Positions 7,159-32,700 of a stretch of DNA of 64,000 bases are shown here, piece by piece; positions within the stretch are counted from its first letter, which is position 1, and every line of letters begins with the position of its first letter. The stretch is taken from contig CAZBHH010000001.1 of the NCBI GenBank assembly GCA_964492065.1, forward strand, positions 6,500 to 70,499, written 5' to 3'. The notes beneath the pieces are model-generated. The model was not told where the DNA came from. It made no database searches and worked only from the letters and a program-made list of their open reading frames with translations. Source of the stretch: an uncultured Chitinophagales bacterium (GTDB lineage Bacteria; Bacteroidota; Bacteroidia; Chitinophagales; BACL12). A program made the position numbers and the translations under genes.

Positions 7159-7529
7159 CTGCAGGCTCATAAGCCGGATTCTGTTTCAATCCTGTCATTT
7201 ATCTGGGCTGTACATCACTGCACAGCTCCTGCTGCCTACCCACCGGAGATTCGGGCGAGCCACCCTCTGTTCCACCGCAGTGGAATACTCCGGCATATTT
7301 GGCATTGTAACCCGCAAGGTTTACCCGCAACAGCTATTGCTAACTGCTGCCGTGAGCTCTTACCTCACATTTTCACCCTTGCCGTTTCCCTGCGGAAGCG
7401 GCGGTTATTTTCTGTGGCACTATCTCGTGCAATGTCGAAACATTACAGCCACCCGTTAGGTGGTGCAGCGCTCTGTGTTATCCGGACTTTCCTCTCCGAC
7501 TTTAATCGGAGCGACAGGCCGGCCTGCAG
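7159..7529 (-). ncRNA. rnpB: RNase P RNA
   Basis: Minus strand has GAGGAAAGTCCGG near the 5' end and ACAGAATCCGGCTTAT near the 3' end; P1 ends CTGCAGGC/GCCTGCAG pair; ~370 nt. Confidence 0.95.
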
Positions 7530-7544
7530 ATATGTTAAAGAACA

Positions 7545-8513
7545 TTATAAATATATCTCGGTTGCACCAAAGCCAAAACGCACATTGTAATCATTATTAT
7601 ACGATACTACTTCCGGTGTTTGTCGCAACACTTTTTCAATTTCTTCTTTCAGCTTGCCGGTACCCAAACCGTGAATCGCATAAATGCGATGTAAATTATA
7701 TGTTATAGCCTTGTCTAAAAACCGCTCGAAATGCCGCAACTGAATCGATAATATTTCCGACTTCTCCAACCTTGCATGGTCAGCTACGAGTTTTTCGATA
7801 TGCAGGTCGATATAATCGGGCATTGCCGCTTTTTCCAATACCTGATGCGCTGGAATGTTTTTCTTTGGCGGTTTCTTAAAAATATCCGCTTCCTCCTTGT
7901 CAGCGGACGTTTTTTCTCTTTCGTCCGGCAACGCTTTTAATATTTCAAAGGCGAGAAAATCTCTTTGCTTAAACACATCGCTTTCCAGTTGGGAAAAAAA
8001 TTGCTTTGCTTTCAGCCTGAGTTCTTTTGACACTGATCTGCCGGTACCGGAACCGGTGTTAATCCAAAAGGTCACATTGAATTGCGGCAGGTCGTTTAAA
8101 TGATCCGGTTTAAAAAAGTGCAGTCGGATATCGGCGCCCGAAGGCAATTCTTTTTTTAATTTTTCTTCAGTTGACTGCCGCAGCAGGTATGTGTAGTCCA
8201 TCCACAGGTTTTCGTTCAGCCTGTTGCACAACCACAACGCATACCGCTCGGTTTCGCCGTTCATTTTTCGCATGGGTTCCATCACCAGCCATATACCTGC
8301 GGGCAGTTCCCGTTTTGCGTCAATAGTTTTTGGAGTTTCCTCTTTTTCTCTCAGTTCGAATTCCGAGGCTTTGACAACGGCGGTTGCGTGTACCGTGCGC
8401 AAGTTGCCATCAATATCTACAATGGCAGTATATTTATCCATATAGGATCGCAATACGCCCAATTCGCCGGTGGTAACAACAAATACTTTTGTGCCGTCAG
8501 GAATTTTGCCCAT
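7545..8513 (-). CDS. Smr/MutS2 C-terminal domain protein
   Basis: C-terminal Smr motifs IDLHIEKL...IHGLGTGKLK; N-terminal KOW-like strands. Confidence 0.85.
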   Translation of the reverse strand: MGKIPDGTKVFVVTTGELGVLRSYMDKYTAIVDIDGNLRTVHATAVVKASEFELREKEETPKTIDAKRELPAGIWLVMEPMRKMNGETERYALWLCNRLNENLWMDYTYLLRQSTEEKLKKELPSGADIRLHFFKPDHLNDLPQFNVTFWINTGSGTGRSVSKELRLKAKQFFSQLESDVFKQRDFLAFEILKALPDEREKTSADKEEADIFKKPPKKNIPAHQVLEKAAMPDYIDLHIEKLVADHARLEKSEILSIQLRHFERFLDKAITYNLHRIYAIHGLGTGKLKEEIEKVLRQTPEVVSYNNDYNVRFGFGATEIYL

Positions 8514-17657: not shown

Positions 17658-17914
17658 TTTTTGCGGTTATAGTCGCTGAAAAGCCATAGCAGTTTGCAAT
17701 TTACAACCGCAGACAGCAATAATTGCATTGCTATCGGAGGATGGCAATAATTGCACTACCGGATGGAAGTATTGACGGGAAAAAACAATGCTGCTCCGGG
17801 TACGCAGACATAGGCTGTATGGCTACTATTAGACGCCATCGGGCGCTGCGATTGATAATTCGCCGCTATAACACCCAGGAACCATCCTAATTTTTATACC
17901 TTTAACATAAAAAC

Positions 17915-18634
17915 ATGCTCGACGATCTGCTCCCCGAAAATTTATTGGTTTTCGATATAGAAACCGTACCCGCCGAAAGAGACTTTTCGCAATTAACACC
18001 TGCAATGCAAAAACTTTGGGAAGATAAAAATGGCCGTAACCGGCCTGAGACCGAGTCGCCGGAACAATTCTACTTTAACCGTGCCGGCATCTTTGCCGAA
18101 TTTGGAAAAGTAATTGTCATTGTCTGCGGTTATATGCAGAAAAAAAACAATAATTATTATCTCAAATTAAAAGTCTATAAACATCACGACGAAAAACAGT
18201 TATTGACCGAATTTTCCCGCACCCTGCAAAATGCCGCCAACAATAAATACCAGTTATGCGGACATAATATCCGCGAGTTCGATGTGCCCTGGCTCTGCCG
18301 CCGCATGTTGATTAACGGCTTACCGCTGCCGCATTCCATTGATTTGTACGGCAAAAAACCCTGGGAAGTGAATCATGTGGACACGCTAGATCTCTGGAAA
18401 TTCGGCGACTATAAACACTATACATCGCTCAATTTGCTCACCAACATATTGGGCATTCCCACGCCAAAGGAGGATATGGATGGCAGTATGGTCGGAAAAT
18501 CGTATTGGGAAGAGGACGGACTCGACCGAATCGCCGTGTATTGCAGTAAGGATGTAATTGCCGTCGCTCAACTCATCATGCGTTTGAAAGGATTGCCGTT
18601 AATTGCAGATGCCAACATTTCCTTTTCCGAATAA
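17915..18634 (+). CDS. 3'-5' exonuclease (DEDD, PolB-related RNase H-like domain)
   Basis: FDIETVP (ExoI), GHNIREFD (ExoII), YCSKDV (ExoIII). Confidence 0.88.
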   Translation: MLDDLLPENLLVFDIETVPAERDFSQLTPAMQKLWEDKNGRNRPETESPEQFYFNRAGIFAEFGKVIVIVCGYMQKKNNNYYLKLKVYKHHDEKQLLTEFSRTLQNAANNKYQLCGHNIREFDVPWLCRRMLINGLPLPHSIDLYGKKPWEVNHVDTLDLWKFGDYKHYTSLNLLTNILGIPTPKEDMDGSMVGKSYWEEDGLDRIAVYCSKDVIAVAQLIMRLKGLPLIADANISFSE

Positions 18635-18873: not shown

Positions 18874-20334
18874 ATGGATAATAAGAAGAAAAAACTCAAT
18901 TCGGTTTCAGGAAGGCCGATAGCGGAGAACCAGAACGTGGAAACTGCCGGAAAGCGAGGCCCCATGTTGTTGCAGGATTTTTGGTTTATCGAAAAGTTAG
19001 CGCACTTTGACCGGGAAGTGATTCCGGAGCGGAGAATGCACGCCAAAGGCTCCGGCGCATTTGGTACGTTTACGGTAACGCATGATATTACCAAATACAC
19101 CAAAGCAAAAATATTTTCACAGGTGGGTAAAAAGACGGAGATGTTTGCACGCTTTTCCACCGTTGCCGGAGAGCGGGGTGCAGCAGATGCCGAACGGGAC
19201 ATTCGCGGTTTCGCACTTAAATTCTACACCGAAGAAGGCAACTGGGACCTGGTAGGCAATAACACACCGGTATTTTTCATGCGGGACCCTTACAAATTTC
19301 CCGATCTGAACAAAGCTGTGAAGCGTGACCCGAAAACAAACCTGAGAAGTGCAAATAACAATTGGGACTTCTGGACACTGCTCCCCGAGGCATTACACCA
19401 GATTACCATTGTCATGAGCGACAGGGGTATCCCAAAATCCTATCGCTATATGCACGGATTTGGCAGCCACACGTTCAGCCTGATCAATGCAAAAAATGAA
19501 CGGCATTGGGTGAAGTTTCACTTCAGAACCATGCAGGGCATTGAAAACCTGACAAACAAAGAAGCCGAAGCGCTCATCGGCAAAGACAGGGAGAGCAGTC
19601 AAAACGACTTGTTTTACGCAATCGAAAACGGCGATTTCCCGAAGTGGAAAATGCAGGTGCAGATAATGCCGGAAGCAGACGCAAAACACTATCGCTTCAA
19701 CCCCTTCGACCTGACTAAAGTATGGCCGCACGGCGACTACCCGCTTATGGATGTCGGAATTATTGAGCTAAACAGAAATCCCGAGAATTATTTTGCAGAT
19801 GTGGAACAGGCAGCCTTTAATCCCGCTTATGTAGTGCCGGGTATCGGTTTTTCACCCGACAGAATGCTCCAGGGCAGATTGTTCTCTTACGGCGATGCGC
19901 AACGCTACCGACTGGGAATTAACCACTATCAGATACCGGTAAATACACCAAAATGTCCTTACCATATCTATCACCGCGACGGCGCTATGCGCATAGACGG
20001 CAACGAAGGCGGAACCCTGCATTACGAACCCAACAGCTACGATCAATGGAAGGAACAAAAAGAATACGCCGAACCGCCATTGGATTTGGAAGGGCCTGCT
20101 TTCCACTACGACCATCGGGAGGATGAAGATTATTACACACAACCCGGTAACCTGTTCCGCCTGATGAATCCGCAACAACGACAGGCGCTGTTCAACAATA
20201 CGGCGGATGCTATGGCCGGCGTCGAAAAATTTATTAAGGAAAGGCATATAGTCAATTGCTATAAAGCCGATCCGGAATACGGAAAAGGTGTGGCAATGGC
20301 TTTAGGCCTGGATATCGACAATATAAAAATGTAA
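18874..20334 (+). CDS. katA: Monofunctional small-subunit heme catalase
   Basis: [15 protein letters not shown] distal His, [21 protein letters not shown] proximal Tyr. Confidence 0.96.
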
Positions 20335-20463
20335 TTGATTCACATTCCGCAACAGCTGTCCCGAAGCAGATTATTTGAATACCTGTTTGTTTTGATGTTT
20401 CATTATCAGGGCGAATATTTTCAAAATATCACTTTTGGATAGCTGTTGCTTTTTACCCCCCCA

Positions 20464-21498
20464 ATGCACGTATCGACACATAGAAAACGCATACTGCTGA
20501 CAGGCGCTTCGGGTACCGTCGGGTATGAGGTGCTCAAACAATTGTCTGTATTAAAAGATACATTGGATATTACCATATTTGATGTGGCATCCGCAAATTC
20601 GCGAAAAAAATTCAAGCCGTTCAGAAAAGATGTAAAAATTGTTTACGGCGATATTACTTCCATAGCCGATGTCGAAAAAGTATGTAGAGAAACGGATGTC
20701 GTCATTCACCTCGCCGCAATTATACCGCCGCTGGCTGATGAAAAACCCGAACTTGCATACCGGGTAAATACATTAGGCACACAACATTTAGTCAAATGCC
20801 TTGAACAGCATGCACCACATGCATTTTTGTTGTACAGCTCTTCGATTTCAGTGTATGGCGACAGAATTCAAAATCCGTGGATAACAGTGGACGATGCACT
20901 GAAGCCAAGTGCGGGCGATCAATATGCAATCACTAAAATTGAAGCAGAAAATATAATCCGCAACAGCAAACTCAATTGGAGCATTTTCAGGTTATCGGCA
21001 ATAATGGGCGGCCATAAAATTTCGAAGCTCATGTTCCATCAGCCGTTGAATACCTCTCTGGAAATTACTACACCTGAAGACACAGCAAGGGCTTTTGTAA
21101 ATGCAATCGGAAAACAGGCACAACTGTCAAAAAAGATATTTAACCTCGGGGGCGGAGCACAATGCCGGATTACCTATGCAGATTTTCTATCACGTTCTTT
21201 TAAAATCTTCGGGCTGGGTGAAGTGGATTTCCCGCCGAAATCCTTTGCGGATAAAAATTTTCACTGCGGTTATTACAAAGACAGCGACACGTTAAATGCA
21301 ATCCTCGACTTTAACAGGGATACCATCGACACGTATTTTGAACACGAAAAGTCAAAGATCTCACCGTTGGCACGCCTAATCAATACACTATTTAAAAAAT
21401 TTATCAAGCGCTATCTGTCCCGGCAGTCGGAGCCATTGGCCGCTTATGTACAACAGGATAAAAAGCAAATGGCGCATTTCTTTAATGAGCCCGATTAA
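20464..21498 (+). CDS. NAD-dependent epimerase/dehydratase (extended SDR)
   Basis: TGASGTVG Rossmann motif, SSISVYG, YAITK (YxxxK). Confidence 0.88.
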   Translation: MHVSTHRKRILLTGASGTVGYEVLKQLSVLKDTLDITIFDVASANSRKKFKPFRKDVKIVYGDITSIADVEKVCRETDVVIHLAAIIPPLADEKPELAYRVNTLGTQHLVKCLEQHAPHAFLLYSSSISVYGDRIQNPWITVDDALKPSAGDQYAITKIEAENIIRNSKLNWSIFRLSAIMGGHKISKLMFHQPLNTSLEITTPEDTARAFVNAIGKQAQLSKKIFNLGGGAQCRITYADFLSRSFKIFGLGEVDFPPKSFADKNFHCGYYKDSDTLNAILDFNRDTIDTYFEHEKSKISPLARLINTLFKKFIKRYLSRQSEPLAAYVQQDKKQMAHFFNEPD

Positions 21499-21554: not shown

Positions 21555-22007
21555 TCAACGGGGTTTGTAAGAGCCGGGTACCGTCCGGAAACTAATTGCC
21601 AGGCGGTTCCACCCGTTAATCGCCACGATTGCCATAGTCAGAGCGACTAATTCCTTTTCCGAGAAATGCCGGCGCACTTCTGCATATAATTCGTCCGAAA
21701 CTTCATCTTCGGAAATCAATGTCAGCGCTTCTGTCCATTCCAGGGCTGCTCTCTCCCGCTCCGTATAAAACGGCGTTTCGTGCCAGGCATTCAATGCGTA
21801 CAGCCGCTGTTCGGTTTCACCCGCCTTGCGGGCATCTTTGGTGTGCATATCTATGCAATAGGCACAACCGTTTAACTGAGAAGCTCTTGTCTTTACCAAT
21901 TCGTAAAGCGATAACTCCAACCCGGAATTTTTTACGTAATGCTCCAGCGCATACATCGCCTGCATGGCTTCCGGCGCTACTTTTCCATAATTTAATCTCT
22001 CCTCCAT
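21555..22007 (-). CDS. Carboxymuconolactone decarboxylase/AhpD-family protein
   Basis: RASQLNGCAYCIDMH, INGWNRL. Confidence 0.9.
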   Translation of the reverse strand: MEERLNYGKVAPEAMQAMYALEHYVKNSGLELSLYELVKTRASQLNGCAYCIDMHTKDARKAGETEQRLYALNAWHETPFYTERERAALEWTEALTLISEDEVSDELYAEVRRHFSEKELVALTMAIVAINGWNRLAISFRTVPGSYKPR

Positions 22008-22254
22008 TGTAACTGATTTTATACCTCAAAAGAACATAATTTTTTGTATAATGTTTTCATTCACCCCGCATATCGGCGAGCAATGCAACAAAGGCCCGGT
22101 TTTGTGAAGAGAGCTATTATCTGCACGCCGTCACACCCGTAAACGCACACATCGCCGATTTTTTAACGGGTGATTCAGCCGGAACATCCTGCCGATTGCA
22201 GTTTTGAATGCGGATTAGCCTGGCTGGTTAAAAAATTTCTCTTCTTCTTAGTTA

Positions 22255-22278
22255 ATACCGGATATTTTTGTCCGGTAT
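22255..22278. promoter_or_regulatory. Candidate Rrf2 operator (8-8-8 palindrome) in the rrf2 promoter
   Basis: ATACCGGA-TATTTTTG-TCCGGTAT; contains a TTTG 22 nt upstream of a TATCTTTG -7 box at 22293-22300. Confidence 0.6.
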
Positions 22279-22318
22279 ATGTAAACTTTACATATCTTTG
22301 TCCCGAAAGATAAATACA

Positions 22319-22753
22319 TTGTTTTCGAAGGCATGCGAATACGGTATAAAGGCAACCATATATGTAGCTAAGAAATCTCAGGAAGATAAGAAGGTGAGTT
22401 TAAAAGTCGTCGCAAGGGCAATAAACTCACCCGAGGCATATACTTCCAAAATTCTACAGCAACTCGCCCGGCATAACATTATCCATTCGGTAAAAGGGCC
22501 AAACGGAGGGTTTTATATGGACAGTAAAGCGCTCGACACGGTCATGCTCAGCAACATTGTATTTGCAATCGACGGCGACTTAATTTATAAGGGCTGCGGA
22601 CTGGGAATGAAGCGTTGTAATGAAAAAATGCCCTGCCCCGTACATTATCAATTCAAAAAAATAAGAGAACAGCTTAAAGAGATGCTGGAAACCACGTCCG
22701 TAAAATCATTGAGCCTCGATGTTAAAAAAGGGCTGGCATTCTTAAAGCGATAG
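22319..22753 (+). CDS. Rrf2-family transcriptional regulator with three Cys (Fe-S type)
   Basis: FSKACEYGIKA start motif (TTG start), SVKGPNGGF, CGLGMKRCNEKMPCPVH. Confidence 0.9.
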   Translation: MFSKACEYGIKATIYVAKKSQEDKKVSLKVVARAINSPEAYTSKILQQLARHNIIHSVKGPNGGFYMDSKALDTVMLSNIVFAIDGDLIYKGCGLGMKRCNEKMPCPVHYQFKKIREQLKEMLETTSVKSLSLDVKKGLAFLKR

Positions 22754-22764
22754 AGAGATATTCA

Positions 22765-22788
22765 ATTAAAGACAATTTTATCCGAAAT
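22765..22788. promoter_or_regulatory. Second candidate Rrf2 operator, upstream of oxidase subunit I
   Basis: Reverse complement ATTTCGGATAAAATTGTCTTTAAT matches box 1 at 15/24 positions, sharing CGGATA-N3-TTGTC. Confidence 0.5.
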
Positions 22789-22796
22789 AGTACACT

Positions 22797-24542
22797 ATGG
22801 ACAAAAGCATTTTAGGCGAATCAGGGATAATTATTACCATATTGCTCATTGCAATACCGGTAATTGCAGCCTCATTACTGGTAATTGCAAGGATGTATTC
22901 CGTATTTAAAAAATATCAGCACAAGCGGGAATTGGAAAAATTCCATGCTTACCTGAAGGGATTGACCCCCGCGGAAGTTGAGAAGCTGGAACAGCGGAAA
23001 AAAGAACTGGAATACTCGTTAACCGACAGGGAACTGGCAGGAGATGCCACACCGGTGGACAGCAAAGGGCTGATTGACAATATCAGCCATACCGATGTAT
23101 TGCGATTCGTAGAAAAAAAGAAAAAAGGGCAACCGCGACCGAACATCGAGCCCAATCTCACGAAGTTAATTTTATGGTACCTGGGTTGTTCCGTTTTTTG
23201 GTTGTTGTTCGGAACGACTATCGGCGAATACCTGGGAATTAAATTTGCGGCGCCGGATATTGACCATGCCAGTTGGCTGAGTTTCGGAAGGCTCAGACCG
23301 GTGCATACCAATGCCGTTTTTTGGGGATGGGCATCTTTGGCGATGCTCGGTTTAGCGTACTATGTCATTCCTCGTGTCAGCAATGTGAAGATCGCAAGTA
23401 TTACCACCGGATATGCCACACTGATACTCATCAATGCCAGCGTGATTATCGGAAGCCTGTCGCTTATGGCAGGCCTGAATAACGGCGGCGGCGAGTACCG
23501 CGAATATATCTGGCCGGTGATGTTGTTATTTGGAGCAGGCATTATTATTTCGCTGATAAATTTTATAAAAACTATTGCTGCCAGAGCGACAAAAGAAATT
23601 TATGTTTCCAACTGGTATATCGTTTCGGCGATGATGTTTGTCCTGGTAATTGCCCTCGTCGCATATTGGCCGAGCTGGCAAAACGGTTTGGGCGAAACTA
23701 TCGTACAGGGGTATTATATGCACCAGGGCGTGGGAATGTGGTTCATGCTGTTTTGCCTGGGTTTGATGTATTACTTTTTGCCGCAGCAACTCAATAAACC
23801 CATTTACTCTTACAGCCTGGGGATACTCGCATTCTGGACGCAAATTATTTTTTATACCCTCATCGGAACACATCACTTTATTTTCAGCGCCATTCCCTGG
23901 TGGTTGCAAACGGTAGCCATCGTCGGCAGTGTAGGCATGATAATCCCGGTAGTAGCGGGAACCACCAACTTCCTGATGACGATGAAAGGCACGTGGAATA
24001 AACTGTCCGACAGCTATACATTGCCCTTTTATTTAATAGGCACTATCTTTTATTTTACGGGCTCGCTGCAGGGTACTGCCGAGGCGTTTCGCTTCACCAA
24101 TTTAGTGTGGCACTTCACCGATTTTACGGTGGCGCATTCACACCTCACCATGTACGGCATTATTTCCTTTATGCTTTGGGGATTCATTTACACCGTAGTT
24201 CCCCGGCTCACGGGCAAGGAGCCGCCTCACCTTACGGTAGGTGCGCATTTCTGGCTGGCACTCATAGGGCTGCTGTTTTATACCGTCCCGCTCATGTACG
24301 GCTCTACATTAAGAGGCCTGATGTGGATGGACGGCAAACCCTTTATCGACAGTGTTGCCATGATGGCTCCTTTCTGGCTGTGGCGTGCTATCGGCGGTTC
24401 GCTGATGTGGATTGCCCATATCCTGTTTGCATATAACTTCTATTCAATGGTTAAGAAGCAGGATACATTTGAAATACCCAAATCGGCGATAGATATTCTA
24501 AAAGCGAAAGAACAATTGGAAACCAAGGTCCTTATCAAATAA
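22797..24542 (+). CDS. ccoN: Divergent cbb3-like (C-family) heme-copper oxidase subunit I with N-terminal extension
   Basis: RLRPVHTN, YYMHQGVG, FYTLIGTHH, HFTDFTVAHSH: six His ligands and the helix-VII Tyr are present. Confidence 0.85.
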   Translation: MDKSILGESGIIITILLIAIPVIAASLLVIARMYSVFKKYQHKRELEKFHAYLKGLTPAEVEKLEQRKKELEYSLTDRELAGDATPVDSKGLIDNISHTDVLRFVEKKKKGQPRPNIEPNLTKLILWYLGCSVFWLLFGTTIGEYLGIKFAAPDIDHASWLSFGRLRPVHTNAVFWGWASLAMLGLAYYVIPRVSNVKIASITTGYATLILINASVIIGSLSLMAGLNNGGGEYREYIWPVMLLFGAGIIISLINFIKTIAARATKEIYVSNWYIVSAMMFVLVIALVAYWPSWQNGLGETIVQGYYMHQGVGMWFMLFCLGLMYYFLPQQLNKPIYSYSLGILAFWTQIIFYTLIGTHHFIFSAIPWWLQTVAIVGSVGMIIPVVAGTTNFLMTMKGTWNKLSDSYTLPFYLIGTIFYFTGSLQGTAEAFRFTNLVWHFTDFTVAHSHLTMYGIISFMLWGFIYTVVPRLTGKEPPHLTVGAHFWLALIGLLFYTVPLMYGSTLRGLMWMDGKPFIDSVAMMAPFWLWRAIGGSLMWIAHILFAYNFYSMVKKQDTFEIPKSAIDILKAKEQLETKVLIK

Positions 24543-24552
24543 AAATAATACA

Positions 24553-25560
24553 ATGCATTTTTTCGATAATCACAATAAACTCTTCGGTACGGCCCTCGCA
24601 TTATTTGTCGGTTTGACAATTATCGTTGCCGTAATACCGGCACTGAAAAATCAAAAAAACAATGCGCCGCTTCCCGGCGATACGCCATTGACGGCGGATG
24701 AAATGGCCGGAAAGAAAATCTATATCGCCAACGGCTGCGTGGCATGTCATACTCAACAGGTGCGCAATGTGGATATGGATAAACTCTGGGCAGACCGCCC
24801 GGGCATTCCGGCGGATTACGCCGATGTAAAGCGCACCGATTTCTGGCGAAATACCGCCACGCTGATGGGTACCGAAAGAACCGGCCCCGACCTCACCAAT
24901 GTCGGCAACAGACAAGGCTCTTTAGCGTGGAATTTATTACATCTCTATCAACCGAGAGCAGTGGTGGAACAATCGGTGATGCCCGCCTATCCCTGGTTGT
25001 TTGAAGTTAAACAGGAAGTGGGCGCCGATGATGTGGAAGTGGTTGTACCCGAAAAATTCAGAGTAGGCGTAAAAGGAAAGATCGTTGCCAGAAAGGAAGC
25101 GCTGCAATTAGTCGCCTATCTGCAAAGCCTGAAACAAATTCCACTGCCCGACGGCAGTACACCTCCCGAATTTTTATACAAGAAAGCGGAGAAACCCATT
25201 GCCGCGGCCGGCGAGACAGCGCTTCAACCGGATGGCGCACTGCTCTATACAAATAACTGCGCCGCCTGCCACCAACCCAATGGCGAAGGATTGCAAGGCG
25301 CTTTCCCGCCATTAAAAGGCAGTTCCGTTGTGCTGGGTGACGACCTGGAATTGTTTGTTAAAATAATTATGCAGGGATACGACGCCCGGCCGGAATATGC
25401 GGTGATGAATGCCGTGGGCACAGACAACAATTTAACCCCTGAAGAAGTAACTGCCATTATCAATCACGAAAAGACGAGCTGGGGAAATGATGCGCCGACA
25501 GTAAGCGTGGAAGAAGTGAAAAAAATTATCGATTTTATTAATGCTATTTCGAGTAAATAA
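24553..25560 (+). CDS. ccoO: CcoO-like cytochrome c fused to a second c-type heme domain
   Basis: CVACHTQQVR...RTGPDL...SVMPAY (CcoO) plus C-terminal CAACHQ...GAFPPL. Confidence 0.85.
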   Translation: MHFFDNHNKLFGTALALFVGLTIIVAVIPALKNQKNNAPLPGDTPLTADEMAGKKIYIANGCVACHTQQVRNVDMDKLWADRPGIPADYADVKRTDFWRNTATLMGTERTGPDLTNVGNRQGSLAWNLLHLYQPRAVVEQSVMPAYPWLFEVKQEVGADDVEVVVPEKFRVGVKGKIVARKEALQLVAYLQSLKQIPLPDGSTPPEFLYKKAEKPIAAAGETALQPDGALLYTNNCAACHQPNGEGLQGAFPPLKGSSVVLGDDLELFVKIIMQGYDARPEYAVMNAVGTDNNLTPEEVTAIINHEKTSWGNDAPTVSVEEVKKIIDFINAISSK

Positions 25561-25835
25561 TGCAGAAGCACATCGCTATATTGGCCGTATTCCTGTTGGT
25601 AAATCAATGGCTGCACGCTTGTGAAGTTTGTAAGGCAGCACAACCCGAAGTTACCCGCGGGATAACTCATGGCGTCGGGCCGCAAAGTTATTGGGACTGG
25701 GTAATAATCGGAGCGGTGGCCGCATTGACTTTGGTAACGCTCATTCTTTCCATAAAATACCTGGTAAGGCCGGGGGAAAACGACAGCAATCATATTAAAC
25801 AAACTATCCTAACCAATTTTGACGATGCAAGATAA
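25560..25835 (+). CDS. Small membrane protein with CxxC and His (oxidase operon accessory)
   Basis: Signal-like N-terminus, ACEVCK...ITHGVGP, C-terminal TM helix; start overlaps upstream stop. Confidence 0.7.
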   Translation: MQKHIAILAVFLLVNQWLHACEVCKAAQPEVTRGITHGVGPQSYWDWVIIGAVAALTLVTLILSIKYLVRPGENDSNHIKQTILTNFDDAR

Positions 25836-26229
25836 TACGAGTAAAGTAACCCTGTTTGTGGACGATGAGCTGCAGCCCATTGCAGAACTCTACACTCCCG
25901 TACAATTTGAACTGGATACCCGTAAACTGACCGACGGAGAACACACCTTAAAAATTGTCAGTAAATCGCCCACCGGGAGGGAAGGTATCCGCAAAATCAA
26001 ATTTATCGTGCGAAACGGCCCTGCTATAACGGTGGATGGCATCAGCGACAACAAGGTAATTGACGGCGTAATCCCGGTGATGATTAATGCCTACGACAAG
26101 GGCAATCAAAAGAAATTTATCATCGGCGGAAGCGAAACACCGACCAGTATCCCCAGTTGGCTCTGGATCCTTTTGGTGGCATTTTTCGGTTGGGCAGCTT
26201 ATTTTATGATTACCCATTTCAACCTGTAA
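25819..26229 (+). CDS. Beta-rich (Ig-like) protein with C-terminal membrane anchor
   Basis: LDTRKLTDGEHTLKI Ig-like pattern, hydrophobic C-terminus, overlaps upstream gene; start may be 25825. Confidence 0.7.
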   Translation: MTMQDNTSKVTLFVDDELQPIAELYTPVQFELDTRKLTDGEHTLKIVSKSPTGREGIRKIKFIVRNGPAITVDGISDNKVIDGVIPVMINAYDKGNQKKFIIGGSETPTSIPSWLWILLVAFFGWAAYFMITHFNL

Positions 26230-26377
26230 TATCCATTTTAATCTATCCCCATCCCCTGTTTACAGGGCGTCGATGCGGATACCACTATGCGTCTGCCTGT
26301 AAAATGCACAGTCGTCACAGATGGCATCCCGGCAAAGTGGAGTTGAAAACTTCAATTTTATTCATACCTTTAAGGTA

Positions 26378-26770
26378 TTGAAACGCACAATCGTCATATC
26401 GCTGCTCGCCATGTTCCTTTACGCAAATACGGAACTCCATGAGCTGTTGAAATTGCCGGTATTAGTCCATCATTACCTGGAACACGATACCAGCTCCCCC
26501 GATTTATCCTTTTTCGAATTTTTAAAAGAGCATTACGACAGCAATAATACCCACCGGCATCCGGACAACAATCACAATGACCATCAGAAGTTGCCGTTTA
26601 AAAACGGCAATTGCAGCACGATGCACTCCGTATTGGACGTATTCCAGGTCGGGATGCAATCCTGTTGTCAGATTGATGTATGTTCCGTAAAAGCTATTTT
26701 CCCCTGCGATGATTTAATATATCTATCCTCCATTTACACCGAAGTTTTCCAACCGCCACAGTTCTGTTAA
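26378..26770 (+). CDS. His-rich hypothetical protein preceding czcA
   Basis: TTG start, hydrophobic N-terminus, ELLKLPVLVHHYLEH and HRHPDNNHNDHQKLPFK. Confidence 0.7.
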   Translation: MKRTIVISLLAMFLYANTELHELLKLPVLVHHYLEHDTSSPDLSFFEFLKEHYDSNNTHRHPDNNHNDHQKLPFKNGNCSTMHSVLDVFQVGMQSCCQIDVCSVKAIFPCDDLIYLSSIYTEVFQPPQFC

Positions 26771-26877
26771 TGCAGCCCGGCTAAACTCCCGGGTCTGGCA
26801 GCGCTTTACGTGTATGTATTTTGTCCAACAGCGCTGTAGTCATTCATCGATGATTTCATTGCATTAACGAATTACTT

Positions 26878-29800
26878 ATGCTCAATAACATAATTGCATT
26901 TTCAGTAAAGAACAAACTCATTATCGGTTTATTCATCATTGCGCTCATCGGCTATGGCAGCTACCAGTTGACACATCTGCCAATTGATGCCGTACCCGAT
27001 ATCACCGACAACCAGGTACAGGTTATAACAGTTACACCTTCCCTGGGGGCTCCCGACGTGGAAAGGCTCATTACCTTTCCCATTGAACAGGCCAACAGCA
27101 ACATTCCGGGGCTAAAGGAAATCCGCAGTTTCTCCCGCTTTGGGCTTTCGCTCATCACCATCGTCTTTGAAGACGATGTGGACGTTTACTGGGCAAGGCA
27201 ACAAGTGACGGAACGGTTGAAAATTGCCGAGCAGGAAATTCCCGCAGGAATCGGCTCGCCCGAGTTGGCGCCGGTTACCACCGGGCTGGGCGAAATATAT
27301 CAATACGTACTTAGAACCAAACCCGGCTATGAATCGCAATACGACGCCACCGCATTGAGGACGATACAGGATTGGATTGTGCGCAGGCAATTGCTCGGCG
27401 TTAAAGGCGTGGCCGACGTCAGCAGTTTCGGCGGCAGGGTAAAACAATATGAAATTGCCGTAAATCCCGATGTGCTCAAATCAAACGGCATTGCCATCAG
27501 CGATGTGTTTGAAGCATTGGAAAAAAATAATGAGAACACCGGCGGTGCATATATCGAAAGATCTTCTACCGTATTGTATATCCGTACCGAAGGCCTTATC
27601 GGAAGTGTAGAGGATATTCAAAATATCGTCGTGAAGAATACGGGTAACGGCACGCCGCTGTTAATAAAACACATTGCCGACGTGCGAATCGGGCAAGCGA
27701 TCCGCTACGGCACCATGACGTATAACGACGAGGGCGAAGTTGCCGGCGCAGTTGTAATGATGCTGAAGGGAGGCAACAGCAGTGAAGTCATAAAAAACGT
27801 AAAAGCACAAATTGCTCAAATAGAAAAAACATTGCCGGAAGGCGTGGTGATAGAACCTTTTTTAGACCGCACCAAAATGGTGAATAATGCCATAGATACC
27901 GTTACCACAAACCTGTTGGAAGGAGCCCTTATCGTCATTTTCGTTTTGGTATTATTTCTCGGCAATTTCAGGGCCGGCATTTTGGTGGCATCCGTCATTC
28001 CTCTTTCCATGCTGTTTGCAGTGATCATGATGAATATATTCGGCGTAAGCGGTAACCTGATGAGTTTAGGCGCCCTTGATTTCGGATTGATTGTAGATGG
28101 CGCCGTCATTATCGTCGAAGCTGTAATGCACTCAATGATGGTAAAAGGTTCCATATTAAAAGTGAATGCAATGCCGGCAGTAGCCGGGGTTATGCATACT
28201 GAAACAGCAGGGCAACGCCAAAAACTTACACAGGGAGAAATGGACGCCGAAGTGCAGCGCTCGGCGAGCAGAATGATGAACAGCGCCGTATTCGGACAAA
28301 TCATTATCCTGATCGTTTACCTGCCCATTTTTACGCTGGAAGGCATTGAAGGTAAAATGTTCAGGCCGATGGCACAGACAGTGGCCTTTGCATTGCTCGG
28401 CGCATTCCTGTTGTCACTCACTTACATCCCGATGATGAGCGCACTGTTCCTGACCAAAAACACGAAGCATAAAAGAAATATTTCCGACCGGATGATGCAT
28501 GCCATAGAGAGCTTTTATCAAAAATGGTTAAAGAGAGTGCTGCACTATCCCAAAACAGTAATCGGGTTTGCCATCTTCTTATTTGCAATTGCAATTTTTA
28601 TTTTTTCACGTATGGGAGGAGAATTTATACCCGAACTCCCCGAAGGCGATTTCGCCGTATCCACCATTGTGTTAACCGGGAGTTCATTAGATGCATCAGT
28701 GGATGCGGTTACAAAATCCGCCCATATCCTGTTGGAAAAATTCCCGGAAGTGGAGAAGGTGGTAGGCAAAACAGGCAGCGGTGAGATACCTACCGACCCC
28801 ATGCCTATTGAAGCATCAGACATGATGATTATTCTCAAAGACAAAAGCGAATGGACATCGGCAAAGACATGGGATGCTCTGGCCGAAAAAATGAATTTAG
28901 CATTGCAAGATGTGCCCGGAGTGGCTTACAGTTTTCAATATCCGGTTGCAATGCGATTCAACGAACTGATGACCGGCGCCAAACAAGATGTCGTTTGTAA
29001 AATTTTTGGTGAAAACTTAGATACGCTTTCCAAATACTCTAAACTGCTCGGCGATATTGCGGGTAAGATCGAAGGCACGGAAAGTATTTATGTTGAACCG
29101 ATCGACGGTTTGCCTCAACTGGTAATTCAGTTTAACCGGGATGCAATTGCCCAATACGGATTAAATATATCCGATGTGAACAACGTCATTAATACCGCAT
29201 TTGCAGGACAGAGCAGCGGACAGGTTTACGAGGACGAGCGGCGATTCGACCTTGTAGTACGGCTTGCAGAAGAGAAGCGCCGCAGCGTGGAAGATGTGAG
29301 AAACCTGCTGGTATCCACGCCACAAGGATCGCAAATTCCTCTATACCAGATCGCCGATGTCTCCATCCGCGAAAGTGTAAATCAAATTCAACGTGAGAAT
29401 GCCAATCGCCGGATTATTGTCGGCTTTAATGTGAATGGCCGGGACGTGGAGAGCATTGTGCACGACCTGCAATCAGGTGTTGAATCGGAATTAAAATTAC
29501 CGCCGGGCTACTATGTCACTTACGGAGGAGCGTTTGAGAACCTGACAGAAGCAAAAAAGCGGTTAGCGCTTGCCGTTCCCATTTCGCTGCTGTTAATTTT
29601 CATCCTGCTGTATTTTGCATTTCATTCGGTAAAACAAGGGTTGCTCATCTATTCTGCAATACCGCTATCCGCCATCGGGGGCATTTTCCTGCTCGCCGCC
29701 CGCGGTATTCCATTCAGCATAAGCGCCGGAATCGGGTTTATCGCATTGTTTGGCGTGGCGGTGCTCAATGGTATCGTATTGATAGCCGAATTCAACAGGA

Positions 29801-30096
29801 TACGGGCTGACGGTGAAACGGATCTCACGCAAACAGTAATCCGGGGCACCAAAACCAGATTGCGCCCGGTACTGATGACGGCACTCGTCGCATCGCTTGG
29901 CTTTTTGCCGATGGCCTTAAGCCACAACGCCGGCGCCGAAGTGCAGCGCCCACTGGCAACCGTCGTTATCGGCGGCCTGCTCCTCGCCACCTTTCTCACC
30001 TTGTTTGTTCTGCCGGTACTCTATATTCTGTTTGAAAAATTTGCACCGGGAAAAAATAATTCAATTACTCAAACGCCAGGAAATGAAAACGAATAA
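26878..30096 (+). CDS. czcA: Heavy-metal efflux RND transporter, CzcA type
   Basis: LPIDAVPDITDNQVQ, TM4 DFGLIVDGAVIIVE, RLRPVLMTALVASLGFLPM. Confidence 0.93.
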   Translation: MLNNIIAFSVKNKLIIGLFIIALIGYGSYQLTHLPIDAVPDITDNQVQVITVTPSLGAPDVERLITFPIEQANSNIPGLKEIRSFSRFGLSLITIVFEDDVDVYWARQQVTERLKIAEQEIPAGIGSPELAPVTTGLGEIYQYVLRTKPGYESQYDATALRTIQDWIVRRQLLGVKGVADVSSFGGRVKQYEIAVNPDVLKSNGIAISDVFEALEKNNENTGGAYIERSSTVLYIRTEGLIGSVEDIQNIVVKNTGNGTPLLIKHIADVRIGQAIRYGTMTYNDEGEVAGAVVMMLKGGNSSEVIKNVKAQIAQIEKTLPEGVVIEPFLDRTKMVNNAIDTVTTNLLEGALIVIFVLVLFLGNFRAGILVASVIPLSMLFAVIMMNIFGVSGNLMSLGALDFGLIVDGAVIIVEAVMHSMMVKGSILKVNAMPAVAGVMHTETAGQRQKLTQGEMDAEVQRSASRMMNSAVFGQIIILIVYLPIFTLEGIEGKMFRPMAQTVAFALLGAFLLSLTYIPMMSALFLTKNTKHKRNISDRMMHAIESFYQKWLKRVLHYPKTVIGFAIFLFAIAIFIFSRMGGEFIPELPEGDFAVSTIVLTGSSLDASVDAVTKSAHILLEKFPEVEKVVGKTGSGEIPTDPMPIEASDMMIILKDKSEWTSAKTWDALAEKMNLALQDVPGVAYSFQYPVAMRFNELMTGAKQDVVCKIFGENLDTLSKYSKLLGDIAGKIEGTESIYVEPIDGLPQLVIQFNRDAIAQYGLNISDVNNVINTAFAGQSSGQVYEDERRFDLVVRLAEEKRRSVEDVRNLLVSTPQGSQIPLYQIADVSIRESVNQIQRENANRRIIVGFNVNGRDVESIVHDLQSGVESELKLPPGYYVTYGGAFENLTEAKKRLALAVPISLLLIFILLYFAFHSVKQGLLIYSAIPLSAIGGIFLLAARGIPFSISAGIGFIALFGVAVLNGIVLIAEFNRIRADGETDLTQTVIRGTKTRLRPVLMTALVASLGFLPMALSHNAGAEVQRPLATVVIGGLLLATFLTLFVLPVLYILFEKFAPGKNNSITQTPGNENE

Positions 30097-31420
30097 TAAA
30101 TCAATTCCAGTATGCTGCATTACGGCTCTCCGGCAGTTGTACCGCAAATACCTGTCGATGGTTTTATCTAACCAAATAACAAAAAGAAAATATCGCATGC
30201 AGAATCTGCTCTGTTTGGTCTTGTTGATTTGCTTTGATACCGGTGTCGGTATTTCGCAACAGCCCATTCATCTGCAAGGTGCAATCGATACTGCCCTGAA
30301 AAATAACTTAACCATGCGAAATGAAATGTTGTATTCCGAATACCTGGAAAAATTACAGGCCACTGCTTTTGATATTCCGCAGACAACACTGGCAGGTGAA
30401 TACGGTCAGTTTAATTCCGCCTTTTACGACAATAAATGGGGAATTGCACAGGGAATCAGCTTTCCCACAGTTTACCTGAAACAAAAGTCGCTTTTGGAGG
30501 AAACGTACAAATCCGGGGTAATGCATCTTGCATTAAAGGAAGTTGAATTAAAGCAGCAGGTCAGCTCGGTATTTTACCGCCTTATCTACCTGGACGCCAA
30601 ACAGCAAATTCTCATCGAAGCGGATTCCGCCTATGTCAGTTTTTTGGAACAGGCAAACCTCCGTTTTGAAAAAGGCGAAACGAATATCCTGGAAAAAACA
30701 ACAGCCGAAATGCTGCGAGGTCAGATTCATCTGCAGTTGCAACACATTCAACAGGAAATAGAAATACTCCGGCTTCAATTTCAACTGTTGCTCAATGCGG
30801 TTACCCCATATTATCCGGCAGCCGAAGGTTTAAAAATGCCGTATCGCACCGGGCCGGACACTTCGGCATTGGCGTATCATCCGGCAGTACAGTTATTACA
30901 GCAGGAAAAAACAATGGCTGTATTAAATACGCAACTGGAGAAATCGAGACTTTTGCCCGATTTGAGTGTTGCCTTTAACTCGATGAGCCAACAGGGAATG
31001 GGCGCCGATGATATTTACTATCCGAAATCCGAACGGTTTGGTTCTGTCCAATTCGGTGTCGGCATCCCTTTGTTTTTCGGAGCACAGAAAGCGAAGATTC
31101 GCTCGGCAAAGACATTGGAGCAAATCAGTGAAAACAACCTGGCTATCGGGTTACAATCGCTGAAAACCGATTGCGCTTCTGCACTGAGCAACTACAATAA
31201 TCAACTGGCGATCGTGCAATATTTTGAAGAAACCGCCCTGCGCAATGCAGATACTATTGTACAGACAGCGACACGCCAGTTTGAAAACGGGGATATCAAT
31301 TATTTAGAATGGACAATGCTCATCAACAATGCAATAACCATCCGCAGCGATTACCTGGATGCCGTTAATGCATTGAATCAAAGTATTATTCAATTGGAGT
31401 ATTTCAGCAATTCGAGATGA
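30083..31420 (+). CDS. TolC/CzcC-family outer-membrane efflux protein (start uncertain: 30083, 30158 or 30197)
   Basis: RFEKGETNILE and FENGDINYLEW TolC repeat motifs; lies between RND and adaptor genes. Confidence 0.85.
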   Translation: MKTNNKSIPVCCITALRQLYRKYLSMVLSNQITKRKYRMQNLLCLVLLICFDTGVGISQQPIHLQGAIDTALKNNLTMRNEMLYSEYLEKLQATAFDIPQTTLAGEYGQFNSAFYDNKWGIAQGISFPTVYLKQKSLLEETYKSGVMHLALKEVELKQQVSSVFYRLIYLDAKQQILIEADSAYVSFLEQANLRFEKGETNILEKTTAEMLRGQIHLQLQHIQQEIEILRLQFQLLLNAVTPYYPAAEGLKMPYRTGPDTSALAYHPAVQLLQQEKTMAVLNTQLEKSRLLPDLSVAFNSMSQQGMGADDIYYPKSERFGSVQFGVGIPLFFGAQKAKIRSAKTLEQISENNLAIGLQSLKTDCASALSNYNNQLAIVQYFEETALRNADTIVQTATRQFENGDINYLEWTMLINNAITIRSDYLDAVNALNQSIIQLEYFSNSR

Positions 31421-31500
31421 TACTGTTGATTGATGAAACTGCAAAATACAATGGTTTTAATACGATATACACATAATACAAAACATAATAAAATAAACAC

Positions 31501-32700
31501 ATGAAACCTATAAGCAATACAATATCGAAATGCGCCGGGATTCCGGCAATTGCAATAGCCGCTTGTTTAATACTGCTTGCCGCCTTTGCACTAACCTTGC
31601 AGTCATGCGGTAAGAAGCAGGCAGCGCCGGAACCGGAAACCGGTGGCGAAACGCCAATGGAAAACACCGTTGTACTCACCGATGCACAATTAAAGAATGC
31701 GGATATTCAGGCCGCCCCGATAAAACAGCAGCGCATTTCTACCCATCTGAAGGTAAACGGAGTAATTGATGTTCCGCCACAAAACATGGTATCGATCAGC
31801 GTGCCGCTCGGCGGTTATTTAAAGTCCACATCCCTGCTGGAAGGTTCTCATGTAAATAAGGGTGAAGTGATTGCTATTCTGGAAGACCCGCAGTATATCC
31901 AATTGCAACAGGATTATCTCATGGCTAAAGCGCAACTGGCGGCATTGGAAAAAGAATACCGGCGCCAGGAAGAGCTCAACCGCAGTAAGGCGAGCAGCGA
32001 CAAAGTGTTGGAAAATGCAGAAGCCGACTACACCGCACAGTTGGTCATGGTCAATGCGTTGTCGGAAAAACTAAAACTCATCCATATCAATCCTGAAACA
32101 TTAAATGAAAATTCCATTTCGAGAACCATCACCATTCAATCGCCAATTGATGGATTTGTAACACATGTCAATATGAATATCGGGAAATATATTGCGCCGA
32201 CGGATGTATTATTTGAGCTGGTAAACCCGTCTGATATTCACCTGACGCTTACAGTATTTGAAAAAGATCTCGACAAATTGTTTATCGGCCAGAAGGTTCT
32301 CGCCTACAGCAATGCGCACCCAAATAAAAAATACCCCTGTGAAATTATCCTTATCGGGCGGGACTTGTCGCACGAACGGGCGGTAACCGTACATTGCCAT
32401 TTTGAGCAATACGATAAAGCGCTGATTCCCGGTATGTTTATGAATGCGGAAATCGAAGTCGCTTCTACTGAGGCGGTGGCAATTCCGGAGGATGGGTTAG
32501 TACATTTTGCAGGGAAATATTACGTCTTCATTCAGGCGGATACCCATACATACCATATGCAGGAAGTCATAACCGGAGCCACTGAAAACGGATTGACAGA
32601 AATCGCTTTTCCCGACAGTTCCGGAATGGATGATAAAATATTTGTAACCCGCGGCGCCTATACCCTTTTAATGAAACTGAAAAATACCGGAGAAGAATAA
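31501..32700 (+). CDS. czcB: RND periplasmic adaptor subunit (CzcB-like), lipoprotein
   Basis: LQSC lipobox, lipoyl-like halves (VPLGGYLK; IQSPIDGFV), LIPGMFMNAEI. Confidence 0.9.
   Translation: MKPISNTISKCAGIPAIAIAACLILLAAFALTLQSCGKKQAAPEPETGGETPMENTVVLTDAQLKNADIQAAPIKQQRISTHLKVNGVIDVPPQNMVSISVPLGGYLKSTSLLEGSHVNKGEVIAILEDPQYIQLQQDYLMAKAQLAALEKEYRRQEELNRSKASSDKVLENAEADYTAQLVMVNALSEKLKLIHINPETLNENSISRTITIQSPIDGFVTHVNMNIGKYIAPTDVLFELVNPSDIHLTLTVFEKDLDKLFIGQKVLAYSNAHPNKKYPCEIILIGRDLSHERAVTVHCHFEQYDKALIPGMFMNAEIEVASTEAVAIPEDGLVHFAGKYYVFIQADTHTYHMQEVITGATENGLTEIAFPDSSGMDDKIFVTRGAYTLLMKLKNTGEE

Follow-up and report, generated by a model that had tools for sequence, protein, structure and literature searches.

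Introduction

Canonical cbb3-type oxidases, which form the C-family of the heme-copper oxidases, are composed of the subunits CcoNOQP, as in Pseudomonas stutzeri (structures 3MK7 and 5DJQ), or carry a CcoNO fusion, as in Bacteroidota. Alternative catalytic subunits of these enzymes are also known, and the orphan CcoN3 and CcoN4 isosubunits of P. aeruginosa give nitrite- or cyanide-tolerant cbb3 isoforms. Defence against nitric oxide (NO) is organised in regulons such as those of NsrR (Escherichia coli, Bacillus, Neisseria, Streptomyces) and of NssR in Campylobacter (NssR-Cgb/Ctb), in which truncated haemoglobin, RIC/ScdA, hemerythrin and the flavohaemoglobin Hmp are standard members; to our knowledge, a heme-copper oxidase as a core member is not a feature of NsrR regulons. 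Here we analyse a 64,000-nucleotide stretch of DNA from an uncultured Chitinophagales bacterium (the whole stretch is called the window below), in which the gene ccoN' encodes a variant subunit I of a C-family oxidase. A first-pass annotation had proposed that this protein combines an intact O2-reduction site with a remodelled proton channel, and this core idea was largely borne out, except that half of the cited channel changes proved to be family-wide.

CcoN' shares with the canonical complex the 12-helix COX1 core, the six His ligands and the Tyr of helix VII, the Glu of the calcium site (E233, equivalent to E122), Y223, N289, Y317 and H337, and a CcoO-type mono-heme partner, at about 30% identity. 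It differs by the substitutions T215M, S240G, L247Q and N208Q, by a helix VI that reads GYYMHQG and has no Trp, by an N-terminal extension of 120 residues (260 in long forms), and by two new small subunits in the absence of CcoP and CcoQ. There is no adjacent ccoGHIS, regulation is predicted to be by an Rrf2 protein together with NO-defence genes, and the proteins score below the NCBIfam equivalog cut-offs. The likeness to CcoN3 and CcoN4 of P. aeruginosa lies in an alternative catalytic subunit serving under respiratory-poison stress beside the main cbb3; however, those two are close canonical paralogues that share CcoO and CcoP, whereas the variant branches off deeply as a clade of its own, with separate subunits and an altered channel.

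NO reductases (NORs) are recognised by the published motifs H-x-Arom-x-E and HH-x-Arom-Arom-x17-E (PMC3084760). NO reductase activity can be measured in canonical cbb3 oxidases, and oxidases have repeatedly given rise to NORs (PMC11214002). With the cytochrome c-dependent NORs (cNOR, NorBC) the variant shares the superfamily branch, a cytochrome c partner of FixO/NorC-like fold, a weak similarity to NorB and, as predicted here, the NO-responsive regulation that cNORs have in many bacteria, but unlike them it keeps a CuB-type site with the cross-link Tyr, has no Glu ligand and partly retains the cytoplasmic channel. The 'N2O red' family of Murali et al. 2024, a putative membrane-bound nitrous oxide (N2O) reductase placed near cNOR and based on Flexibacter canadensis, lacks the active-site Tyr and was found in 293 GTDB genomes (PMC11214002). 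It has in common with the variant the C-family branch, a link to Bacteroidota and the status of an uncharacterised enzyme; the variant is CcoN-like with Tyr, whereas that family is cNOR-like and Tyr-less, a separation that follows the stated definition only.

Active site and proton channel of CcoN'

The product of ccoN' matched Pfam COX1 with E=1.3e-80, and its nearest solved structures were the cbb3 CcoN subunits 9g6b and 3mk7 (E~1e-62), with weaker matches to NorB (4xyd, 1.9e-9) and to ba3 oxidases (~1e-4). Equivalent residues were assigned from a phmmer alignment and from MAFFT alignments, the first MAFFT alignment containing the query and 75 full-length representatives from an exhaustive HMMER scan; the P. 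stutzeri CcoN reference comprised residues 15-461 rebuilt from the phmmer alignment, with its numbering checked. In these alignments the ligands H170, H309, H359/H360 and H447/H449 of CcoN' correspond to H60, H207, H257/H258 and H345/H347, and Y353, Y325, N391, Y419, H439 and E233 correspond to Y251, Y223, N289, Y317, H337 and E122. All residue identities listed in the first-pass annotation were thereby recovered, but the gap-free alignment at a constant offset of 102 that it described was valid only for residues of about 297-478; the N-terminal half runs at an offset of 110-111 with indels, and H170 fits P. stutzeri H60 only at offset 110.

Conservation was assessed in 65 clade members in comparison to 39 other full-ligand C-family sequences. 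The six His ligands (two of heme b, one of heme b3 and three of CuB), the cross-link Tyr of helix VII (Tyr-II, Y353), and E233, Y325, N391, Y419 and H439 were 100% conserved in the clade, in line with the earlier statement that the ligands, Y353, Y325, Y419 and H439 are retained; the covalent bond of the Tyr is assigned from its alignment position only. Neither of the two published NOR motifs was found in the CcoN' sequence, as H309 is followed by QGVG and no NOR-type Glu is present, which agrees with the earlier reading. As judged from sequence, CcoN' is thus a C-family (cbb3-type) heme-copper oxidase subunit I with an intact oxidase-type active site. The match to NorB 4xyd, absent for P. stutzeri CcoN, had raised the idea of a special closeness to NorB, but this was rejected as uninformative, because the unrelated C-family protein P0144 matches 4xyd too (3.3e-9) whereas the sister representative P0125 does not.

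The set of K-analogous channel residues (T215, Y223, S240, N289 and Y317) was incomplete in CcoN', with T215 and S240 replaced and the rest kept. M317 stands in the position of T215 and was found in 100% of the clade, whereas 38 of the 39 other representatives (97%) have T215; G342, in 97% of the clade, takes the place of S240, which 35 of the 39 others (90%) retain. A third position, Q349, was invariant in the clade, while position 247 (L247 in P. stutzeri) is L or I elsewhere, with His in two sister representatives. Further clade-specific positions were Q310, R235, W176, T301, Y290 and G147, and the clade-specific changes as a whole occurred in 100% or 97% of the 65 members and in at most 10% of the sequences elsewhere. 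The helix VI motif G-Y-Y-M-H-Q-G belongs to the same class, and the previously noted reading of GYYMHQGVG in CcoN' in place of the canonical WWYGHNAVG was correct.

The other two of the four channel changes that had been proposed, A345 for H243 and Q425 for E323, are not peculiar to the clade. Of the 39 other representatives, 28 have Q and 10 have E at position 323, while 26 have G and 10 have H at position 243; E323 and H243 mark the proteobacterial-type CcoN group alone, the canonical Bacteroidota CcoNO included, and their replacement is the norm for most of the family. E323, which we take from the 3MK7 structure to be a hydrogen-bond partner of the proximal His, is presumably not a channel residue. 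Similarly, of the two new polar residues that had been pointed out, Q349 was upheld but T348 was not, since S/T is common at this position across the family and T is only 69% conserved within the clade.

Taken together, two of the most conserved channel residues of the C-family are replaced while the cofactors of O2 reduction are kept. Gly at position 240 occurs in five representatives, each of which has a polar side chain at 243 or 247; this suggests, for sequences that are phylogenetically non-independent, that such a residue compensates for Gly-240. Because the clade keeps Y325, N391 and Y419 without exception and has gained an invariant Gln at 349, we infer that the proton path was remodelled rather than lost and is probably still working. 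In the 3MK7 structure the entrance of the canonical cbb3 channel involves CcoP; as CcoP is absent from the variant, its entrance would have to differ.

The core of CcoN' covers residues ~124-555, and residues 1 to ~120 form a conserved N-terminal extension that is specific to the clade. The AlphaFold2 model, built from a 24-sequence in-clade alignment, was of low confidence (mean predicted local distance difference test score, pLDDT, 50.1; predicted template modelling score, pTM, 0.48), and tentatively depicts this extension as one hydrophobic helix with charged helices. In Sphingobacteriales and some Chitinophagaceae we also observed long forms of ~690-720 aa (loci L033-L054 and L061-L080, for example proteins P0121 and P0122), which start ~400 bp earlier and have an extension of 260 aa with a second 'hydrophobic helix plus charged helix' module; this points to a duplication of the N-terminal module.

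A separate clade of C-family oxidases

In a neighbour-joining tree of 45 full-ligand sequences (50 bootstraps, midpoint rooting, without a NOR outgroup), the clade was monophyletic in 50/50 bootstraps and, rather than nesting among canonical CcoN, it was placed on a long stem remote from the P. stutzeri-type group. Its sister, also in 50/50 bootstraps, consisted of the representatives P0125 and P0126, which come from a non-Bacteroidota context and have neighbourhoods that are ordinary oxidase contexts without NO genes. The scores against profile hidden Markov models (HMMs) were far below the cut-offs, with 253.6 bits for CcoN' against NCBIfam ccoN TIGR00780 (cut-off 583) and 95 bits for its partner, encoded by ccoO'-c, against ccoO TIGR00781 (cut-off 200). 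These results support the distinct subfamily that had been suggested from the sequence of the window.

The best 120 database relatives of CcoN' were 79-87% identical over 99% of the length and all came from Bacteroidota; as had been expected, the source annotation of the relatives is simply 'cbb3-type cytochrome c oxidase subunit I'. When GTDB was scanned with each species represented by one genome, 109 matches were obtained, the best 80 of which belonged to Chitinophagaceae, Saprospiraceae, Flavobacterium, Pedobacter, Parapedobacter, Mucilaginibacter, Sphingobacterium, Chryseobacterium, Empedobacter and others, and identity within the clade across Bacteroidota families was 60-87%. Metagenomes, notably of activated sludge, yielded thousands of clade sequences. 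On this evidence the clade is a distinct one and would represent a separate paralogous branch of the C-family oxidases, seen so far in Bacteroidota only. We found no description of the clade, its operator or its regulon in a literature search that left many subscription papers outside its coverage, so that a prior mention is possible.

The alignments also contained many CcoN-like proteins of normal length without several or all of the heme and CuB His ligands and the Tyr (P0173, P0187, P0223, P0252, P0257, P0262 and others), which are heme-copper oxidase homologues.

The four-gene cassette

The gene ccoN' and the three genes downstream of it were kept together in 79-80 of 80 species-level loci; here and below, counts of cassette and neighbouring genes refer to the best 80 of the 109 matches. 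The features of the locus are collected in Table 1. The second gene, ccoO'-c, present in 79/80 loci, encodes a protein that matched Pfam FixO (6.5e-30) as well as Cytochrom_C and Cytochrome_CBB3, with PDB matches to CcoO of 1e-21 to 1e-24; its two CxxCH motifs (CVACH and CAACH) were both conserved in 80 orthologues. The 91-aa protein that follows directly after it in 79/80 loci had no match in Pfam or NCBIfam, and an NrfA-type CxxCK heme motif considered for this protein was rejected, since the Lys is not conserved. The match of the 136-aa protein to Pfam Big_7 was marginal (4.1e-5), but the protein occurred in 79/80 loci at 51-79% identity. Searches with Pfam and NCBIfam over the 80 loci revealed no separate CcoP or CcoQ gene in the cassette; instead, a single c domain is fused to CcoO.

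Table 1. Features of the ccoN' locus in the window and genes found near the cassette in related loci. PWM, position weight matrix.
Feature	Position	Strand or direction	Occurrence	Evidence or remark
Catalase	18874-20334			upstream of Rrf2 gene
NAD-dependent epimerase-like protein	20446-21498			upstream of Rrf2 gene
AhpD-like CMD-family protein	21555-22007	-		upstream of Rrf2 gene
Operator O1, 26-bp palindrome AATACCGGATATTTTTGTCCGGTATA, overlaps -33 region of rrf2 promoter	22254..22279	.		PWM 24.2 bits
TATCTTTG, matches Bacteroidetes -7 element TAnnTTTG	22293..22300	+		read from sequence
rrf2, Rrf2-family transcription regulator, 144 aa, probable start TTG 22319	22319..22753	+		Pfam; orthologue starts
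Operator O2 AATTAAAGACAATTTTATCCGAAATA, 8 bp upstream of ccoN' ATG	22764..22789	.		PWM 21.0 bits
ccoN', variant C-family heme-copper oxidase subunit I, 581 aa	22797..24542	+		Pfam, PDB and alignment evidence
Codons of helix VI motif GYYMHQGVG in ccoN'	23709-23735	+		
Codon of M317 in ccoN'	23745-23747	+		
Codon of G342 in ccoN'	23820-23822	+		
Codon of Q349 in ccoN'	23841-23843	+		
Codon of Y353 in ccoN'	23853-23855	+		
ccoO'-c, CcoO (FixO) domain and one C-terminal class-I cytochrome c domain	24553..25560	+		Pfam, PDB
91-aa accessory protein: hydrophobic leader, then A-C-x-x-C...Q-P...H-G-x-G-P, one transmembrane helix	25560..25835	+		conservation pattern
136-aa accessory protein: N-terminal Ig-like (Big_7), no signal peptide, C-terminal transmembrane helix (tail-anchored)	25819..26229	+		Pfam
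Group-III truncated haemoglobin		downstream, same direction	40/80 loci	Pfam
RIC/ScdA di-iron protein		downstream, same direction	26/80 loci	Pfam
Hemerythrin		downstream, same direction	25/80 loci	Pfam
2Fe-2S-like ferredoxin		downstream, same direction	15/80 loci	
Flavohaemoglobin Hmp		downstream, same direction	12/80 loci	Pfam
DUF1858/DUF2249		downstream, same direction	6/80 loci	Pfam

The Rrf2 regulator and its operator

A gene for an Rrf2-family regulator ends 43 bp upstream of ccoN', and in 59/80 loci such a gene lies directly upstream of it. The mechanical call of the open reading frame (ORF) starts at 22268, and the later start given in Table 1 was chosen from the orthologues, which begin MFSKACEYGI. 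The protein matched Pfam Rrf2 (E=2.3e-21) and scored above the cut-off of NCBIfam rrf2_super, and its motif C-x6-C-x5-C-x2-H was at least 90% conserved in 56 orthologues.

Comparison of orthologous upstream regions revealed an operator consensus, AATAAAGGAyAAAtTTrTCCTTTATT, located ~50 bp before the rrf2 start and followed in most of these regions by a TAnnTTTG box. The latter is the Bacteroidetes -7 promoter consensus. A PWM trained on 29 orthologous upstream sites gave exactly two matches in the window, the operators O1 and O2. Over the 1.26 Mb of loci that were scanned there were 79 matches, 48 of them before rrf2, at least 18 before ccoN' and several before the starts of long forms, as well as 4 before hmp and 1 before a DUF2249-RIC gene (L052); the background in shuffled sequence was 2 matches per 0.64 Mb. 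The conserved operator upstream of both rrf2 and ccoN' links ccoN' at the operator level to a predicted Fe-S Rrf2 regulator, which substantiates the Rrf2 control proposed earlier, and it defines a candidate new Rrf2 operator and regulon in Bacteroidota.

The arrangement resembles NsrR regulons in the Rrf2 Fe-S repressor with three conserved Cys, in autoregulation through a palindromic operator (here read from the DNA), and in targets shared with NsrR and NssR regulons, namely hmp, RIC/YtfE-type di-iron proteins and group-III truncated haemoglobin. It differs in that HMM scores do not place the regulator among NsrR orthologues, and the operator is presumably unlike the published NsrR boxes. In about 10 Weeksellaceae loci (among them L056-L060, L063, L066 and L067; at about 7300-7900), the place directly upstream of the cassette is taken by a Crp/Fnr gene instead of rrf2, a likeness to Campylobacter NssR, and the same loci have an rrf2-operator-hmp unit ~7 kb from the cassette.

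Several other sites and genes were noted in this context. A perfect 9-1-9 palindrome, ATATGTAAACTTTACATAT (22277-22295), was rejected as the operator because it was absent from all 80 related loci; it overlaps the -7 box of the rrf2 promoter and could be the site of a second regulator or a chance occurrence. In L008 (15873-16304), L013 (15019-15450) and L052 (16050-16502), the RIC and DUF2249 genes downstream of the cassette are followed, a few kb from it, by a gene for a second, more distant Rrf2 paralogue. In L028 (13554-14925), an operator-like site precedes a gene for a polytopic membrane protein of 424 aa that contains an H-A-H-S-H motif and may be a member of the regulon; a likeness of this protein to NnrS, seen by eye, was not upheld, as there was no Pfam match.

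Neighbouring genes, coexistence with canonical cbb3 and transcripts

The genes found near the cassette in related loci (Table 1) include truncated haemoglobin, RIC/ScdA, hemerythrin and Hmp, in Pedobacter in the order rrf2-hmp-ccoN', and together with the cassette they look like an NO-stress regulon. This agrees with the association with NO stress that had been put forward from the window alone. No nosZ-type or denitrification genes were present among the conserved neighbours.

In six Weeksellaceae genomes, a 753-aa canonical CcoNO fusion is encoded 2 kb from the variant. This fusion has WWYGHNAV, T215, S240, H243 and E323, that is every canonical channel residue, and is 47% identical to P. 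stutzeri CcoN and 30% identical to the variant of the same genome. Because a canonical CcoNO co-exists with it in at least 6 genomes, the variant is best seen as an auxiliary oxidase and not as the main cbb3, as had been supposed. The 64-kb window itself contains no canonical CcoNO.

In the window, the genes for catalase and the AhpD-like protein upstream of rrf2 suggest a local oxidative-stress neighbourhood. An association of catalase and AhpD-like CMD genes with the cassette was rejected, as they were found in only 1/80 and 3/80 loci, respectively. Downstream of the cassette, a His-rich ORF of 149 aa (26321-26770) without a family match is followed by a resistance-nodulation-division (RND) efflux system (26878-32700) with an AcrB/CzcA-type pump, an outer-membrane factor and a CusB/HlyD-type adaptor, which is not conserved beside the cassette elsewhere; this stretch looks like a metal-efflux unit, and RNA contig depth in the region peaked over 26397-27235, at about 70-115.

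The cassette sequence was found in activated-sludge and wastewater metagenomes and in metatranscriptomes. In a wastewater metatranscriptome, one RNA contig of moderate depth extended from 22440, inside rrf2, to 26324, at the end of the fourth cassette gene, which fits a single transcript. Elsewhere in the window, RNA contigs of two metatranscriptomes start at 17909 with a 21-nt A run that is absent from the DNA, before an ORF at 17915-18634; the run may mark the polyadenylated end of an RNA, or it may be an artefact of the library.

Discussion

The explanation that we prefer, with confidence evenly divided between acceptance and doubt, is that the cassette encodes an auxiliary oxidase which is induced by NO and whose proton path has been remodelled but probably still works. 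It would form a four-protein complex of CcoN', the CcoO-cytochrome c fusion with two c hemes, a small single-pass CxxC/His protein and a tail-anchored Ig-like protein. The Fe-S Rrf2 protein of the neighbouring gene would repress the cassette through the 26-bp palindrome at its own promoter and just before ccoN', and damage to its cluster by NO, the likely inducing signal to judge from the gene neighbours, would switch on the whole set. Electrons would pass from a periplasmic cytochrome c through the two c hemes and heme b to the intact heme b3-CuB-His-Tyr site, which would reduce O2 and probably turn over some NO, as canonical cbb3 enzymes do, so that respiration and the scavenging of O2 and NO would continue while the normal oxidases are inhibited. 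Protons would use a rebuilt cytoplasmic K-analogous path, in which the hydroxyls of T215 and S240 are gone (M317 and G342), the new invariant Q349 would lie one helical turn below the cross-link Tyr, and new cytoplasmic elements would replace the CcoP part of the entrance.

Several observations weigh against an NO-induced oxidase of this kind. The NO signal was deduced from the gene neighbours alone, and in the 64-kb window the cassette is not followed by truncated haemoglobin, RIC or Hmp. The Rrf2 protein scored 32.6 bits against the NsrR equivalog (cut-off 182), so it is not an NsrR orthologue, and its best named NCBIfam match was the IscR equivalog with 60.6 bits (cut-off 207). Regarding the channel, the Met that stands at position 215, with its bulky hydrophobic side chain, could obstruct the path instead of being bypassed, and the geometry of Q349 and M317 is derived from helix periodicity alone (model pLDDT 50). 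The contig-level RNA is compatible with DNA carry-over and is silent on induction, and our literature search found no activity, induction or binding experiment on the variant.

The strongest competitor of this explanation is a dedicated NO reductase that depends on cytochrome c and is derived from a C-family oxidase, non-electrogenic and still with CuB and the His-Tyr cofactor, in which the loss of T215 and S240 would be the loss of the cytoplasmic proton path, as in cNOR. The operon belongs to a putative NO-defence regulon under an NsrR-like regulator, apolar residues have taken the place of two channel residues whose conservation elsewhere is 90-97%, and the long stem together with the very high conservation within the clade suggests a change of function; the NO reductase activity of canonical cbb3 enzymes and the repeated origin of NORs from oxidases (PMC11214002) point in the same direction. 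However, Tyr-II is invariant, a fourth (Glu) ligand is missing and both NOR motifs are absent by published criteria (PMC3084760, PMC11214002), the invariance of Y325, N391 and Y419 is unexpected for an abandoned path, the partner is FixO and not NorC, and the similarity to NorB (E=1.9e-9) is no greater than that of P0144. We therefore judge this reading to be unlikely, although it is to be taken seriously. Much less probable is an ordinary second high-affinity cbb3 for micro-oxic growth, in which Rrf2 would report on Fe-S status or oxygen and the NO-related neighbours would be coincidental. The intact active site and partner subunit would suit such an enzyme, Rrf2 proteins also sense Fe-S or redox state, the Cys3-His pattern resembles IscR (best named match, 60 bits), and the neighbours in the window are catalase and an AhpD-like protein instead of NO genes. 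Yet the catalase and CMD genes are close to the cassette in only 1/80 and 3/80 loci, whereas at least half of the 80 loci have truncated haemoglobin, RIC, hemerythrin or Hmp in the same direction, and the cassette operator also precedes hmp; at least 6 carriers already have a canonical cbb3, and neither the channel nor the subunit composition is ordinary.

We find it very improbable that the clade belongs to the 'N2O red' family of Murali et al. 2024 or performs other non-O2 chemistry. That family is also linked to Bacteroidota within the C-family branch (PMC11214002), and its genome count is of the same order (293 GTDB genomes, compared to our 109 species-level matches), but it is described as cNOR-related and Tyr-less, while the Tyr and the CuB ligands are invariant in the variant clade. 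In addition, the E-value of the variant for CcoN is lower than that for NorB by 50 orders of magnitude, and nosZ-type or denitrification genes are missing from its conserved neighbours; the exclusion from the family follows its stated definition only.

Between an auxiliary oxidase and an NO reductase, the clade may be seen, tentatively and with more doubt than belief, as a natural cbb3-to-NOR intermediate: NO-induced, with the His-Tyr kept, having as its job either NO removal or NO-insensitive O2 reduction, and with a proton route without T215 and S240 in which new cytoplasmic elements, the N-terminal extension and the Ig-like protein, replace the CcoP entrance. If this is true, the clade would add one more independent move within the C-family away from O2 reduction and towards NO chemistry. 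The clade also bears on how NO reductases may have arisen from C-family oxidases. The classification as an oxidase or an NO reductase rests on few active-site and channel residues, and arguments about how these enzymes pump lean heavily on the C-family having a single proton channel. An abundant and strongly conserved clade of this kind offers a natural experiment on the working of the K-analogous channel. It also bears on how aerobic Bacteroidota keep respiring or remove NO in nitrifying and denitrifying communities. Annotations as 'cbb3 subunit I' in Bacteroidota may hide two functionally different enzymes.

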